The notes beneath the pieces are model-generated. The model had not been told where the DNA came from and searched no databases. It saw nothing but the letters and a program-made list of their open reading frames with translations. This document shows, piece by piece, positions 14,083-24,938 of a stretch of 64,000 nt of DNA. The stretch is from an uncultured Lachnospiraceae bacterium (GTDB taxonomy: Bacteria; Bacillota; Clostridia; Lachnospirales; Lachnospiraceae): NCBI GenBank assembly GCA_947626435.1, contig CANQSB010000007.1:14243-78242 (forward strand), read 5' to 3'. The first letter of the stretch is position 1; every line of letters begins with the position of its first letter. A program made the position numbers and the translations under genes.

Positions 14083-14160
14083 ATGCACCCGCAAATCATC
14101 CGTTTTCCTAGTTTACCTATAGGTTTTATTATAAATATGGAATAGATTCTTGTCAATTAG
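14083..14160. repeat. Copy A of a ~78-bp duplicated promoter/leader segment
   Basis: Aligns with 14489-14565 (atgcaccc...cctataggttttattataa...ttgtcaattag). Confidence 0.8.
14128..14156 (-). promoter_or_regulatory. Consensus sigma-A-type promoter of tcdA
   Basis: Minus strand reads TTGACA, 17 nt, TATAAT. The 5' UTR contains an 8-bp hairpin (cggatgat/atcatccg, 14075-14102) followed by CUGUUUUCU. Confidence 0.6.
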
Positions 14161-14488: not shown

Positions 14489-14565
14489 ATGCACCCACAA
14501 ACCGTCCTTTCCCCTAGTGAACCTATAGGTTTTATTATAATACAGAATAAATTTTTGTCAATTAG
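14489..14565. repeat. Copy B of the duplicated promoter/leader segment
   Basis: See copy A. It is immediately preceded (14458-14487) by a 30-bp match (2 mismatches) to the 3' part of tcdA (13307-13336). Confidence 0.8.
14534..14561 (-). promoter_or_regulatory. Duplicated near-consensus promoter upstream of the Cys-rich ORF
   Basis: Minus strand reads TTGACA, 16 nt, TATAAT. The IS insertion site abuts the -35 element. Confidence 0.5.
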
Positions 14566-15210: not shown

Positions 15211-15447
15211 TTATTCGTCTGCTCTTGGGGCACCTGACTGTATAAATCCTATAATCTCATCCGTTGCCTTGTCACCGGCATGACAGGCATTCAGTACCTT
15301 CTTGTCATCCAGACGCTTCCGCTTCGCAACAAACTTCTCCAGTTCATTCAGTGCGGCAGCATACTTTGCCTTCGCTTCTGTCACGGAAACTTCCGCTTTC
15401 CTGATCTTCTCGTCTAATGTGATCATTCTTCCTGCCATTCCTGTCAT
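15211..15447 (-). CDS. Small coiled-coil hypothetical protein (78 aa) coupled to the transposase
   Basis: ATGA start/stop overlap with the transposase stop (15444-15447); heptad-like KAEVSVTEAKAKYAAALNELEKF. Confidence 0.5.
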   Translation of the reverse strand: MTGMAGRMITLDEKIRKAEVSVTEAKAKYAAALNELEKFVAKRKRLDDKKVLNACHAGDKATDEIIGFIQSGAPRADE

Positions 15448-17192
15448 CTGCTCCTTTCTTCCTGGGCCGCTGCCTGTTTCTCAAATGCTTCCGTTTCTAT
15501 CCGCATCAGATCGGAACTGAGTGTCCTTGCCTGACGACGTATACTGTCAGCAGTCATGCCAAATGCTTTTAGAATCGTCTTTTGCGTTGCTGTTACGGCA
15601 TAATCCAGGTTGTATTCGTTATCGGCTCCTTTCAGCATCTCTATTTTTTCCAGCTCCTTTAATGCCATCGGCACGGTCATGAAATTCGGCTTCTTATCTA
15701 ACCGGGCAGCTTCGTCCTTGAGGAGCGTGTAGATCCTGCTCCTGATGATCGTGGCTACAAAACCAATGAATATCTTTGTGTCAACGGCTTCGTTTGAATA
15801 TACCCTTTCACAGTTGGCACCGAGATAGGATTTATCCGCGCGGAATGTCTTTTCGGAGTCATCCCGGCTCTTGTATAGCACGAGTGCTTCTTCCGCAGTC
15901 ATTTTTGCGGAAGTGACAATCACAAAATATCCGCACAACCGGATCTCACGGTTGATCACATCAGCCCGTTCTATCCCCGACATAAACTTTTCATCTTCAT
16001 GCCCTTCATGCCAGAATACAAGATCAAAGTATTTTTTATAATCCCCACTGGGACGGATAGGCTCCCCCATAAGATCCCGGAGCTTCCGGCCCATCCTGTC
16101 AATCCTGTCTTCCAGCTTCTCCCGTTCCGAGGCTTTCCTTCCGTCATCATAATAAATGTGAAAGTAACGTTCTTTTTTATCGGATGCATATAGCTTTCTC
16201 CTGATTGTGATTCCGCTGACTTTAAAAGCCCGGATACTGTTCCTCCGGTCATTTTCGAAAGAACCCTGTGCTTCCAGAACCAGTTCGCTCACCAGACTCT
16301 TCATTCCTTTTATCATGATCACAAAATCATACCCGTTATCATCCATGAAGCAGATGTTTTCCTTACAGAAATATCCCCGATCCAGAATAAATCCGATATG
16401 CTCATATCCATAACTTTTCGCCTTTTTCAATGTGTGTTGCAGCTGGGAAACATCGACGATGCTGCCTGGATAGGATTCATAAAACAGCGGTTCCCGGTTG
16501 CTCCGGTCATAGGCGATTGCATAGTTGAAGATCTCATCTTCCATACCTTCTTTCGCATGACCAAGCTCAACCATCTCAATATTGCCTGCCTGGCTTTTCT
16601 TATTTGTAGAATCGTAGGAAATGTAGATCCTCTCGCGGTGATCCTTCTTCGCGTTCCATTCATTCAGGAACTGGATCCGCTGGTCAACCGTGACATCCCT
16701 GAGAAAGCCGGACACCTTCGAGTCGCTGTAGGCTTTCATGTCATCGGTAAACAAGGCGTGATTGTAGGCATAATCCGGATAATACTGCCCGGCGTTTTCC
16801 TCCGTGATAATGGAATAGGCAGCCAGATCCAGGAACAGTCCTGCATCCTGCCCGATAATCCTTGCAATCATCTCATCCAGCTTATAATCGGATATGATCT
16901 TTCGGATTACCAGGAATGCGCCGACATGAAGGCACCCGCTCCTGATCCTCCCATCCTTTTCCGAAGGAAGCAGCTCTCTCGGAAAAAATCTCAGAAACTT
17001 CTCATTCGGAAACATAAAATCCGGCTGTTCGGAATCGCGTTTTCCTATACATGTCCGTTTTGGTATACTATACTTTTTCTCCTTGGAGTATGTGCGTCCA
17101 CGCTCAATGTAAACGTATGGCGTCCCGTTAATTGTTTTGATCGTGATGTTTCCACCATCTTTCGGAATTTTTACCCTACATCCCAGATACAT
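15444..17192 (-). CDS. DDE transposase, IS1634/IS4-like
   Basis: 582 aa. The N-terminus (ITIKTINGTPYVYIERGRTYSKEKKY) is typical of IS1634-family transposases, and the ORF lies inside IR-bounded, TSD-flanked DNA. Confidence 0.8.
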   Translation of the reverse strand: MYLGCRVKIPKDGGNITIKTINGTPYVYIERGRTYSKEKKYSIPKRTCIGKRDSEQPDFMFPNEKFLRFFPRELLPSEKDGRIRSGCLHVGAFLVIRKIISDYKLDEMIARIIGQDAGLFLDLAAYSIITEENAGQYYPDYAYNHALFTDDMKAYSDSKVSGFLRDVTVDQRIQFLNEWNAKKDHRERIYISYDSTNKKSQAGNIEMVELGHAKEGMEDEIFNYAIAYDRSNREPLFYESYPGSIVDVSQLQHTLKKAKSYGYEHIGFILDRGYFCKENICFMDDNGYDFVIMIKGMKSLVSELVLEAQGSFENDRRNSIRAFKVSGITIRRKLYASDKKERYFHIYYDDGRKASEREKLEDRIDRMGRKLRDLMGEPIRPSGDYKKYFDLVFWHEGHEDEKFMSGIERADVINREIRLCGYFVIVTSAKMTAEEALVLYKSRDDSEKTFRADKSYLGANCERVYSNEAVDTKIFIGFVATIIRSRIYTLLKDEAARLDKKPNFMTVPMALKELEKIEMLKGADNEYNLDYAVTATQKTILKAFGMTADSIRRQARTLSSDLMRIETEAFEKQAAAQEERSR

Positions 17193-21438: not shown

Positions 21439-21558
21439 CGCAATCTCTCTCCATTCCTGATGCTCTTGTATTTAAAAAAGCCTATACTATCGCATAACAC
21501 TTTTTGTATTATAAAATATTACTTTTCCCGCGTCAACATTTTTGGGCTTATTTCCTCT

Positions 21559-21596
21559 TAATTTTATATCTCAACGCTTGAAAACGCAACAAAAAA
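21559..21596. repeat. 38-bp direct repeat, left copy, flanking the sortase/LRR cassette
   Basis: taattttatatctcaacgcttgaaaacgcaacaaaaaa is identical to 24901-24938. Confidence 0.9.
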
Positions 21597-21724
21597 CAAA
21601 TGCTTTATGGCGTTTTAGCCGATAATAATGTTCATTTATGTGAGATTGCACATTCCCTGAATGAGAAATCATGATGAAAAAGATGAATGATGATATTTCC
21701 AACAGCGCGGCAAAACAGCCCGTC

Positions 21725-22567
21725 CTACCGCGCCCGCCGCGCCGCTACTACCAGCCGTCCGTTCTCCGTATGATACTCACAGGTTGTCAGCGTCAGCAGT
21801 TCGTCCCCATATTCCGGCACGATTCCTGTGTCATACAGCGACAGCTCCCTGCAGTTGTCCACATAGTAGGCGAATTCCTCCTCTGTGTCTGCCTGAAAAA
21901 ATTGATAATACCGAAACACATCCGTTTCGTTCCGGTAAAAAATACGGGAGAGGAACACCGCGAATATCTCATACTCCTGCTCCTCATAAAGCGTCGTATA
22001 GCGTATCACCGGATGCTCCTGATAAAACGCTTCCTTCTCATAGCCCGTCAGCGCGCGGAACATGGAGCCGTTCTTCATATTATGGCCATGCAGCAGAAGG
22101 TTTGTGCTGCGGGGCTCTACGCTCGCCCCTTCATCAATAAAAATACACCCCGCCGCTTCCTCTTCCCCTGCAAAGTTCCTGTGAAGGTAGTAGCCATAAT
22201 CCTGCGGACGGTACATCACCGGATAGTCAATGACCGTATCGGGAATTCGAATCCAGCCTGCCAAATCGCTGTTCTGCTCATAAAGTTTCTGCATGGACGG
22301 CAGCATCGGCAAAGTTTCCGGCTCCGCTTCCCCTTCCGGCGCCGTTTCCGGAAGCAGCGGGAGGAGCTCTGCCGCTCCGCTCAGGCTGCTGCGTACCTCC
22401 TCCCGCTTCGGCTGGCCGGGCGCCCTATAATACCTCCGGACCACTCCCGCCAGCAGGACTGCCGCCACCGCCAGCAAAACCAGCGCAAGGTCCATCGCCC
22501 GCGTGACGCGACGATACCTCAGGCTTCCCTGCTTTAAGGCGTCTTGTTTTCTGTGCCTGTTATTCAT
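21725..22567 (-). CDS. srtB: Class B sortase
   Basis: N-terminal TM anchor, LLLHGHNM (His) and LTLTTC (catalytic Cys). ATGA overlap with the upstream surface-protein gene. Confidence 0.85.
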   Translation of the reverse strand: MNNRHRKQDALKQGSLRYRRVTRAMDLALVLLAVAAVLLAGVVRRYYRAPGQPKREEVRSSLSGAAELLPLLPETAPEGEAEPETLPMLPSMQKLYEQNSDLAGWIRIPDTVIDYPVMYRPQDYGYYLHRNFAGEEEAAGCIFIDEGASVEPRSTNLLLHGHNMKNGSMFRALTGYEKEAFYQEHPVIRYTTLYEEQEYEIFAVFLSRIFYRNETDVFRYYQFFQADTEEEFAYYVDNCRELSLYDTGIVPEYGDELLTLTTCEYHTENGRLVVAARRAR

Positions 22568-24741
22568 CTCTCGTCTCTTAACAATGCCATGCGCTTCCTG
22601 CCGATTACAATGCCTGCAGCGACTACCGCCGCCAACGCAATCAGTGCGGGCACGCCCGTATTTCCTGTCACATCCCCATCCTTATGGGCACGATCAAGCT
22701 CTGCCGGGGATTCCAACTGCGCAGGCGCTTCCTTTCTCTCATATTCTACCACGACGATTGGTGAAAAGCCGGTCAATGTCGCCGCGATACTGCCGTCCGC
22801 CACCGCACCCGGCTCAATCATCTCCCAAGCGCCGTCATTCTTCCTGTGATACAGAAGATAGCTGCCGCCCGCCTTCACGCCATCAACCGCAACCACTAAC
22901 TCGCCGCCATGTGCAGATGCTATATCCACTGCCGCCAGTATCCGGATTGCGGAGGCATCCGTCAGACTTGTACTGATTGCCGCTTCCGCCGAGCGGATTG
23001 TATCCGCGTCAAGCTCCAAAGCCGCCACTGCCACGCCGTCTACACGCGCCACTATTACCGCCTTTGCAAGACCTGCCGTATTTTCATCTGTGTAATAGAA
23101 GCCGCTATTGTCCACGACATCTCTTCCGCCACCCGTACTCGGTTCAGCTTCTACGCCACCGATACTTAGTTCATTTTCTACACTGCCTGTGCTTGGTTCA
23201 TTTTCTGCGTCACCTGTGCTTGGTTCATCTTCTATGTCGCCTGTGCTTGATTCGTCTTCTGCGTCACCTGTGCTCGGTTCGTCTTCTGTGTCGCCTGTGC
23301 TCGGCTCATCTTCTGCGTCATCTGTGCTTGACTCGTCTTCCGCGTCGTCTGTGCTCGGCTCGTCTTCTGCGTCGCCTGTGCTCGGCTCGTCTTCTGCGTC
23401 GTCTGTGCTCGATTCGTCTTCTGCGTCGTCTGTGCTCGGCTCATCGCCTCCGCTATCTGTCCGGAATGTAACCTCATTCTCCTCCGCCCACTTCTCAGCA
23501 TAGGAACCTGCCGCAGCTTTGATAGTCAGACCGTCGCAGCCATTGAACGCATTCTCTCCAATCGACCGGACACTTTCCGGGATTGTCACGCTGGTCAGAC
23601 CGCTGCAGCCGGAAAACGCCTCACTTCCTATCTCTGTTACATGCTCCGGAATCGTCACATCCGCCAGAGCCGTACAGCCGAAAAACGCTTGCTCCCCTAC
23701 CTTTGTTACACTGTCCGGAATCGTCACAGCTGCCAGACCGCTGCAGCCGGAAAACATACTATCGCTTATCTCCGTTACACCGTTTGGAATCTTCACATAT
23801 TTCAAGTCAGTGCAATCTATAAATGCACCTACTCCTATCTCGCTTACACTATCTGGAATTGTCACGCTGGTCAGATTGCTGCAATTATTGAACGCATCCT
23901 CTCCAATCGACCGAACGCCTTCTAGGATTGTCACTTTGGTCAGCTTTAAGCAGTGGGCAAACGCCTCGCTTCCTATCGCTGTTACACTCCCAGGGATTAC
24001 CACACTTTCCAGGCTGGTGCAAGCGCCAAACGCCTCTTTTCCTATCGCTGTTACACTCTCAGGGATTACCACTCGTTTCAGGTTGGCGCACTTTTCAAAT
24101 GCCGACATTTCTATCTCTGTTATACCCTCCGGCAGCACCACAGATTCCAGACTACGGCAGCCATAAAACGCACCTACCCCTATCTTTGCCACACTCCTCG
24201 GAATCCTCACAGATACCAAACTGCTGCAACCGTCGAACATATAATCTGTTATCTCTGTTATACTCTTCGGCAGCTCCACAGATTCCAGGCTGTCACAATA
24301 ACTAAATGCGTGCCGTTCTATCTCTATTACAGTTTCCGGAATCACCACACTTTTCAGACTTCTGCAGTGGGAAAACGCATTAGATGCGATTTTCGTTACA
24401 CTTTCCGGAATCCTTATACGCTCTTCCGTACCCTCATAGCTTTTCAGCACCCCGTCTTCGATTAGATACCCGTCCACATACAATAATTCCCCATTCTCCG
24501 AAGCCTGCAGTGGTTCCACATTCGTTTCTGTTTCCGTATCTGTCTCCGTATCTGTTTCCGTCCCTGTCTCCGTACCTGTTTCCGTCTCCGTCTCTGTTTC
24601 TGTTTCTGTTTCCGTTTCCGTATCTGTTTCTGTTTCCGTCTCCGTCTCTGTTTCCGTTTCCTCCGCCTTCGCCGGCATGACAGAAATCGTATTCACAGCC
24701 AGCAGCGCCGCTGCCGCCAGCACCAACCATCTTTTCTTCAT
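22564..24741 (-). CDS. Cell-surface leucine-rich-repeat (BspA-type) protein with a C-terminal sorting signal
   Basis: Signal peptide MKKRWLVLAAAALLA and a (TE/TD/TG)n tract. About 13 LRR units (IPxSVTxIGxxAFxxCxxLxSV). About 11 acidic decapeptide repeats. C-terminal hydrophobic helix plus GRKR tail. The ATG at 24741 follows GGAGGA. Confidence 0.85.
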   Translation of the reverse strand: MKKRWLVLAAAALLAVNTISVMPAKAEETETETETETETDTETETETETETETETGTETGTETDTETDTETETNVEPLQASENGELLYVDGYLIEDGVLKSYEGTEERIRIPESVTKIASNAFSHCRSLKSVVIPETVIEIERHAFSYCDSLESVELPKSITEITDYMFDGCSSLVSVRIPRSVAKIGVGAFYGCRSLESVVLPEGITEIEMSAFEKCANLKRVVIPESVTAIGKEAFGACTSLESVVIPGSVTAIGSEAFAHCLKLTKVTILEGVRSIGEDAFNNCSNLTSVTIPDSVSEIGVGAFIDCTDLKYVKIPNGVTEISDSMFSGCSGLAAVTIPDSVTKVGEQAFFGCTALADVTIPEHVTEIGSEAFSGCSGLTSVTIPESVRSIGENAFNGCDGLTIKAAAGSYAEKWAEENEVTFRTDSGGDEPSTDDAEDESSTDDAEDEPSTGDAEDEPSTDDAEDESSTDDAEDEPSTGDTEDEPSTGDAEDESSTGDIEDEPSTGDAENEPSTGSVENELSIGGVEAEPSTGGGRDVVDNSGFYYTDENTAGLAKAVIVARVDGVAVAALELDADTIRSAEAAISTSLTDASAIRILAAVDIASAHGGELVVAVDGVKAGGSYLLYHRKNDGAWEMIEPGAVADGSIAATLTGFSPIVVVEYERKEAPAQLESPAELDRAHKDGDVTGNTGVPALIALAAVVAAGIVIGRKRMALLRDER
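23130..23450. repeat. Coding 30-bp tandem repeat (about 10-11 units)
   Basis: Units such as tcgtcttctgcgtcacctgtgctcgg encode the STDDAEDEP-type decapeptides. Confidence 0.85.
24524..24664. repeat. Coding 6-bp microsatellite-like tract
   Basis: (gtttcc/gtctcc/gtatct)n encodes Thr-Glu/Thr-Asp/Thr-Gly dipeptide repeats. Confidence 0.85.
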
Positions 24742-24811
24742 ATTCCTTCCTCCGTTTCTTTCCGCCGCTCTGCGATAGCCCATTTACCGCAGTTACACAT
24801 GTTTTTTCTCA

Positions 24812-24839
24812 ATTATACCCCCCCCCCTATTTTTGTCAA
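24812..24839 (-). promoter_or_regulatory. Near-consensus promoter of the LRR-srtB operon with a G10 homopolymer in the spacer
   Basis: Minus strand reads TTGACA (24834-24839), aaaata + G10 (16 nt), TATAAT (24812-24817). Confidence 0.6.
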
Positions 24840-24900
24840 TAATTAACATCTACCATTTGTGTTTACCAATTTGTGTTTAAAAATAACAGTTCAACTTCCA

Positions 24901-24938
24901 TAATTTTATATCTCAACGCTTGAAAACGCAACAAAAAA
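24901..24938. repeat. 38-bp direct repeat, right copy
   Basis: Identical to 21559-21596. Confidence 0.9.

Follow-up and report, generated by a model that had tools for sequence, protein, structure and literature searches.

A run of ten G residues lies inside a promoter that would drive an LRR surface protein and a sortase in an uncultured Lachnospiraceae bacterium of the rabbit gut. The question raised by this locus is whether the run is part of a switch, in which the gain or loss of a single G would change the strength of the promoter, or whether it is an incidental feature of a promoter that is always on. To our knowledge, what has been established about slippage of repeats as a means of phase variation comes almost wholly from pathogens such as Neisseria, Haemophilus, Campylobacter, Helicobacter and the mycoplasmas. 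We analysed the whole 64-kb stretch of DNA in which the locus lies (hereafter the window) and compared it with other assemblies, with related loci and with promoters of the same design elsewhere. Our preferred reading, to which we give a probability of about 0.6, is that the G10 promoter is a functional slippage switch for the LRR protein and the sortase.

The promoter was read directly from the sequence. On the minus strand, 24839-24812 is TTGACA-AAAATA-GGGGGGGGGG-TATAAT with a spacer of 16 nt, which is exactly what the earlier note had described for the coding strand. The elements of the promoter region are the following:

24834-24839, minus strand: -35 hexamer TTGACA (sequence, promoter scan)
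24828-24833, minus strand: AAAATA, the A-rich portion of the spacer (sequence)
24818-24827, minus strand: G10 homopolymer (C10 on the plus strand), the proposed slippage site (sequence, run search)
24812-24817, minus strand: -10 hexamer TATAAT (sequence, promoter scan)
24742-24805, minus strand: predicted 5' UTR of about 64 nt, its start placed near 24805 from the hexamers
24855-24882, minus strand: two direct repeats TAAACACAAAT, 14 nt apart, ending 15 nt 5' of the -35 hexamer (repeat search)

The G10 tract occupies the -10-proximal portion of the 16-nt spacer, with TATAAT directly adjoining. Its ten residues exceed the length of about 8 G/C from which a mononucleotide tract can slip. The bases 5' of the -10 hexamer are GG and, therefore, the promoter is without a TG extended -10 element. 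The AT-rich intergenic setting claimed for the tract holds, as does the distance of about 70 nt to the LRR gene: 70 nt separate the end of the -10 hexamer from the ATG at 24741, which is preceded by a GGAGG ribosome-binding site at 24753-24749. In the promoter scan, 24839-24812 was the sole 12/12 site within 20-27 kb, and no second good minus-strand promoter was found in the intergenic region of the LRR gene. From their sequence, we infer that these hexamers would form a promoter really in use.

The surroundings of the promoter were searched for other modes of control. The 5' UTR contains a small hairpin and is without a terminator; a riboswitch or attenuator was ruled out, there being no Rfam match and an unremarkable fold. 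A switch by promoter inversion was also ruled out, the promoter being without flanking inverted repeats. The TAAACACAAAT repeats may be a candidate regulator-binding site or an UP-like element.

The earlier note had remarked on this tract as the only long G/C homopolymer noticed in the window, and a run search confirmed it: G10/C10 is the sole G/C run of 7 or longer in 64 kb, the next longest being 6. By our own estimate, about 0.03 G/C runs of 10 or longer would be expected in 64 kb at 44% GC. Related Lachnospiraceae/Clostridia loci, 1.94 Mb in all, contained four G/C runs of 8 or longer and none of 10 or longer. The perfect promoter pattern TTGACA-N15-19-TATAAT occurs three times in the whole 64-kb window versus 0.1 expected from shuffles. 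The coincidence of the tract and the promoter is far from chance. The spacers of the other two perfect promoters (14128-14156 and 14534-14561) are AT-rich, and that of 14534-14561 is likewise 16 nt long.

The regions of these two other promoters (14100-14160 and 14500-14561, minus strand) have a feature of their own. Downstream of each promoter is a leader of about 70 nt, similar between the two (AAAACCTATAGGT..ACTAGG..GGGTGCATA..); what comes next is a 76-aa Cys-rich ORF in one case and a ThiF/TcdA-like gene in the other. Neither leader had a match in Rfam, and the pair may represent leaders or riboswitches of a kind not yet described.

Downstream of the G10 promoter, the proposed operon of an LRR surface protein and a sortase stood up to closer analysis, as two overlapping genes with matches to LRR_5 and Sortase:

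22564-24741, minus strand: gene for a 725-aa secreted BspA-type LRR protein (ORF, LRR_5, signal peptide)
21725-22567, minus strand: gene for a 280-aa class-B-like sortase with a TLTTC motif (Pfam, TIGR03064)

The LRR protein consists of a signal peptide, Thr/Glu-rich repeats, about 13 LRR units and acidic 9-aa repeats, with a unique domain, a hydrophobic stretch (VPALIALAAVVAAGIVIG) and an RKR tail on the C-terminal side. Pfam LRR_5 matched it over four stretches with 506 bits against a cut-off of 27.7 (E = 2e-154). A canonical LPXTG or NPQTN motif is absent from the protein, the nearest sequence being VTGNTG. No relatives of the C-terminal domain were detected, no orthologue came out of a full-length homologue search, which the LRR domain swamped, and the exact sequence was absent from the clustered protein collection. 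The gene also contains three in-frame tandem arrays (at 24500-24685, 23078-23472 and 23525-24412), made of 12/18-nt Thr-Glu repeats, at least 10 acidic repeats of 27 nt and LRR units of 69 nt; their copy number could vary independently of the promoter tract.

The start of the sortase gene overlaps the stop of the LRR gene by 4 nt. Its product matched Pfam Sortase with 51.7 bits (cut-off 26.6), and class B was the best-scoring class, TIGR03064 giving 138 bits, which is below its cut-off of 153.75. The nearest relatives of the sortase share at most 62% identity, and no G tract was found near the closest of them. The protein clusters of the sortase and of the neighbouring LtaS-like sulfatase have only 1-2 members each. 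In one run guessed to be RNA, error-free contigs of the LRR and sortase genes were present and none extended over the 5' UTR; such contigs fit an active promoter and prove nothing.

The promoter and the two genes belong to an accessory cassette of 3304 bp (3342 bp with one repeat copy), located between yicC and the LtaS-like/YfhO genes:

21597-24900, minus strand: accessory cassette with promoter, LRR gene and sortase gene (repeats, empty sites)
21559-21596, no strand assigned: left copy of a 38-bp perfect direct repeat (repeat search)
24901-24938, no strand assigned: right copy of the 38-bp perfect direct repeat (repeat search)

Four other gut metagenomes (X7, X8, X9 and X11) have the empty-site joint 21558->24901, at which 3342 bp are skipped and a single repeat copy is present. 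The flanks of the empty-site contigs are about 95-97% identical to the window. In the nearest species among the representative genomes, yicC lies directly beside the LtaS-like/YfhO genes, which indicates that the empty state is ancestral and that the promoter arrived with the cassette. No integrase, recombinase or transposase was found in the 3.3-kb cassette, the LRR and sortase genes being the only ones. A plasmid or phage origin of the cassette was ruled out, with no match in plasmid and phage collections.

Several observations concern the neighbourhood of the cassette. The empty-site contig of X11 diverges from the window left of 21508. A gene for an IS4-type DDE transposase (582 aa) lies at 15444-17192 on the minus strand, about 4 kb from the cassette, and is also present in L083, an ENA assembly. 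A yicC promoter, TTGACG-17-TATAAT, was found at 21508-21536 on the minus strand, just past the left repeat and in the orientation of the cassette genes. As there is no clear terminator 3' of the sortase gene, transcripts started at the G10 promoter may extend into yicC-remA-rpoZ.

We then compared the length of the tract across assemblies. Every assembly that spans it has G10: the window, L001 (a Logan contig of run X1, 100% identical to the window), L083 (99.96% identical to the window) and X2 contig 2, all from one sample/study. No contig with an alternative tract length was found at 80% likeness; because contigs drop rare variants and the sequences come from one sample/study, this comparison carries little weight either way. 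Of four runs, three (X2, X3 and X4) have Logan contigs that are broken at the tract. Such breaks fit length heterogeneity and Illumina difficulty at G runs equally: Illumina error at G runs is known, and contig breaks are expected there (PMC9187656). Two further strains (98-99% identical; contigs L002 and L084, runs DRR848765 and DRR848887) carry the cassette, and their contigs stop short of the promoter. The variants found of the LtaS-like gene were all from the same sample. The same promoter with any tract length had no match in species-representative genomes or in JGI metagenomes; the species is absent from the GTDB representatives, in which the best YicC match is 83% identical.

The depth of the contigs around the tract was uneven. 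In X2-X4, the C tract and the AT-rich piece upstream (24818-24930) lie on a short Logan contig with a word depth of 17.5-22, about twice that of the long contigs flanking it (8-12), and the word depth of the 38-mer repeat was 33-40. Local coverage bias, a second strain sharing the piece and another copy are the candidates for the extra depth of 24818-24930. In addition, a 355-nt contig of low depth (X6 contig 9) has exact matches of 19 nt and 18 nt to the cassette (21728-21746 and 24799-24816) in opposite orientations, and runs into unrelated GC-rich sequence exactly at the expected start of the C tract. This contig could be chimeric, match by chance or represent a rearranged variant.

Promoters of the same design were surveyed in species-representative genomes with the pattern TTGACA-N0-10-G9+-N0-10-TATAAT, that is, with perfect hexamers and a tract of G9 or longer. 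At least 123 promoters in at least 120 loci matched, while a rough expectation for the entire collection, estimated by ourselves with no tool and assuming a low-GC composition, is about 17. Among the matches listed, the hosts were mostly gut MAGs of Clostridia and Bacilli, many from rabbits; others were Selenomonadales, Saccharibacteria, Treponema, Fusobacteria-like genera and one Helicobacter. In 57 of the 123 matches listed (46%), no base separates the tract from TATAAT, versus about 9% expected under free placement. The downstream ORF has a signal- or TM-like start in 76 of 98 matches listed (78%) versus 218 of 696 controls (31%; odds ratio 7.6, p = 3e-18), the controls being a crude set of other ORFs of at least 150 aa in the same loci, some of them spurious. 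A lipobox-like motif is present in 20 of those 76 ORFs, and LRR_5 is the commonest downstream Pfam family among the matches listed (6 of 98 versus 6 of 696 controls). Two or three such promoters per genome were found, among the matches listed, in Lapin-033 bin54, a Hadza Bacilli MAG, Gallimonas merdigallinarum, Ancillula and Streptobacillus notomytis.

Tract length differs between near-identical paralogous promoters of one genome in four pairs among the matches listed; ungapped clustering by flanks gave only three clear pairs, and other related pairs were chosen by eye:

L221 and L280: G9 and G10
L195 and L284: G13 and G12
L193 (two promoters): G11 and G12
L262 (two promoters): G10 and G11

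Runs X1 and X9 contain a relative of the L186 promoter whose tract is longer than the reference by at least one G. Among the matches listed from loci L165-L284, the spacer is 17 nt long in 6, 15-16 nt in 29 and 18-20 nt in 72. The shortage of spacers of the optimal 17 nt may reflect sub-optimal spacing in most assembled states or, equally, the requirement for G9 or longer. In the literature searched, promoters of this kind were not described for Lachnospiraceae or other Clostridia. Tentatively, and at a little below even odds, we suggest that these promoters form a widespread sigma-A class in gut Clostridia and Bacilli and in some other gut phyla. The class would be marked by an A-rich stub followed by G9-G15 abutting TATAAT, would stand preferentially ahead of secreted proteins, lipoproteins and BspA-type LRR proteins, with several members often present in one genome, and could make up a slippage "phasome" of commensal Firmicutes, whose member in the window would travel with its cargo as a 3.3-kb cassette with a 38-bp duplication.

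For the locus itself, the proposed mechanism is as follows. G10 would be the length-variable portion of the spacer of a sigma-A (sigma-70-type) promoter, which would transcribe the two-gene cassette of an adhesin-like LRR protein and its dedicated class-B-like sortase. During replication, slipped-strand mispairing would add or remove one G, giving a -35/-10 spacing of 15 nt with G9, 16 nt with G10, 17 nt with G11 and 18 nt with G12. With no TG extended -10 element to compensate, promoter strength should follow spacing. Cells of one clone would then express the surface protein at graded levels that are heritable and reversible; the majority state in the sequence data (G10, 16 nt) is probably on or intermediate. 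We infer that slippage of the tract is frequent enough in this organism to be of use, and that expression tracks tract length. The earlier note had put forward a tract-length switch of this adhesin-like protein; the anatomy of the promoter, the match to porA described below, the recurrence of the design ahead of secreted proteins in the survey and the differing tract lengths of paralogous promoters speak for it, whereas a change in length was seen nowhere among the four G10 assemblies, which come from one sample/study.

Three other explanations were weighed against a slippage switch. Were the G10 tract a sequencing or assembly artefact, such as two-colour-chemistry poly-G or a homopolymer mis-join, contigs ending or starting inside it, as the Logan contigs of X2-X4 do, would be accounted for. 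The tract is internal, however, with unique sequence on either side, an identical G10 came from three assemblers/runs (window, L001 and L083), and X2 contig 2 reads through it, also with G10. Because the same G10 is found in L001, L083 and this second Logan contig, we conclude that it is not an assembly artefact of the window, and regard an artefact of any kind as extremely improbable. It could also be that the promoter is fixed and constitutive and that the G run is incidental, for instance a relic carried with the cassette, slippage being rare and of little consequence. The G10 of all four tract-spanning sequences agrees with this, as does the 16-nt spacer of a second perfect promoter in the window, and no orthologous cassette was found for comparison. 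Since 14534-14561 also has 16 nt, this spacing could by itself mean "on", and the effect of a one-base change may be only modest. Against an incidental run, the window contains no other G/C run of 10 or longer, and 1.9 Mb of related DNA contains none. At least 57 promoters of other genomes also have such a tract in a perfect spacer, abutting the -10 hexamer, and this placement goes with secreted proteins; tracts of G9-G11 are hypermutable wherever measured (PMC3639595, PMC9187656). We consider a fixed promoter unlikely.

The remaining alternative places the relevant on/off variation in the cassette as a whole, which would be gained and lost as the 38-bp repeats recombine, the G tract being secondary. 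Much of what is known of the cassette favours such events: the repeat at its two ends is perfect, the empty-site joints in X7, X8, X9 and X11 are exact, and yicC is next to the LtaS-like gene in the nearest species. As an account of switching, gain and loss has less to offer, for a deletion is not readily reversible and the cassette is without a recombinase. The empty sites, moreover, are in relatives with flanks about 95-97% identical, which points to presence or absence at the level of lineages and not to switching within a population. The G tract would also be left unexplained, and both mechanisms can coexist. Gain and loss of the cassette is a second source of on/off variation beside the tract; that it is the relevant one, with the tract secondary, we find highly doubtful. 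A slippage switch is the reading that we retain.

If this promoter and its many counterparts in gut Clostridia and Bacilli do switch, dominant commensal Firmicutes too would vary their surface proteins stochastically, with consequences for colonisation, for immune/IgA recognition and for phage adsorption. The single consensus tract length of a metagenome-assembled genome would then mask a mixed population. The structure of the cassette suggests a ready-made unit of switch and adhesin able to pass between strains. The class of promoters found in the survey is a more interesting lead than the single locus, and can be tested straight from tract-spanning reads.

Phase variation is a well-supported candidate reading of this locus, owing to the architecture of the promoter and to analogy with known systems, of which porA of Neisseria meningitidis is the closest match. 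That homopolymer slippage between the -35 and -10 hexamers alters promoter strength, taken as established in the earlier note, matches the porA series, in which expression is highest with 11G and is lower by about 2-fold with 10G and by about 13-fold with 9G (PMC3639595). Both loci have a G tract of 9-11 in the spacer of a sigma-70-type promoter ahead of a surface-protein gene. In porA, one-base changes alter the spacing, and expression is graded, not strictly on/off (PMC3639595). The porA gene, however, encodes a core-genome porin of a Gram-negative pathogen, whereas the window locus is a predicted switch in a Gram-positive-type commensal, with an LRR protein and its own sortase in an accessory cassette.

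Two systems resemble the window locus in host or in cargo. In Bifidobacterium breve, G10/G11 tracts of bbr_0113 and bbr_1889 switch sortase-dependent pili, the heterogeneity of the population was shown by error-corrected sequencing, and G tracts in promoter spacers are mentioned in the same paper (PMC9187656). Both hosts are gut commensals with a Gram-positive envelope and sortase-linked G tracts; B. breve differs in being a high-GC actinobacterium, in the tracts being intragenic and acting by frameshift, and in the products being pilins rather than LRR proteins. In Ca. Mycoplasma girerdii, BspA-like genes are under phase variation by simple sequence repeats, as deduced from metagenomic reads (PMC5476646). 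The likeness lies in the BspA/TpLRR-type LRR surface proteins; the repeats of this species are CA dinucleotides causing frameshifts within genes, and not a promoter homopolymer.

Promoter-located repeat switches are also found in opc and fetA of Neisseria and in vlp of Mycoplasma hyorhinis. To these may be added the hif fimbriae of Haemophilus influenzae, with indels in the promoter region as far as the summary in PMC9187656 describes them, and the tpr genes of Treponema pallidum, for which PMC7864442 treats both poly-G and the promoter. In all of them, as proposed for the window locus, a repeat in or near the core promoter sets the transcription of a surface protein; they differ in repeat units or positions and in phylum, and all are in pathogens. 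Within the Clostridia, cwpV and the flagellar switches of Clostridioides difficile give phase-variable expression of proteins of the cell wall or surface (PMC2784873). These differ in being driven by a recombinase through site-specific inversion of DNA, and not by slippage. By its sequence, the window locus would belong to the known, porA-type kind of homopolymer in a promoter spacer.
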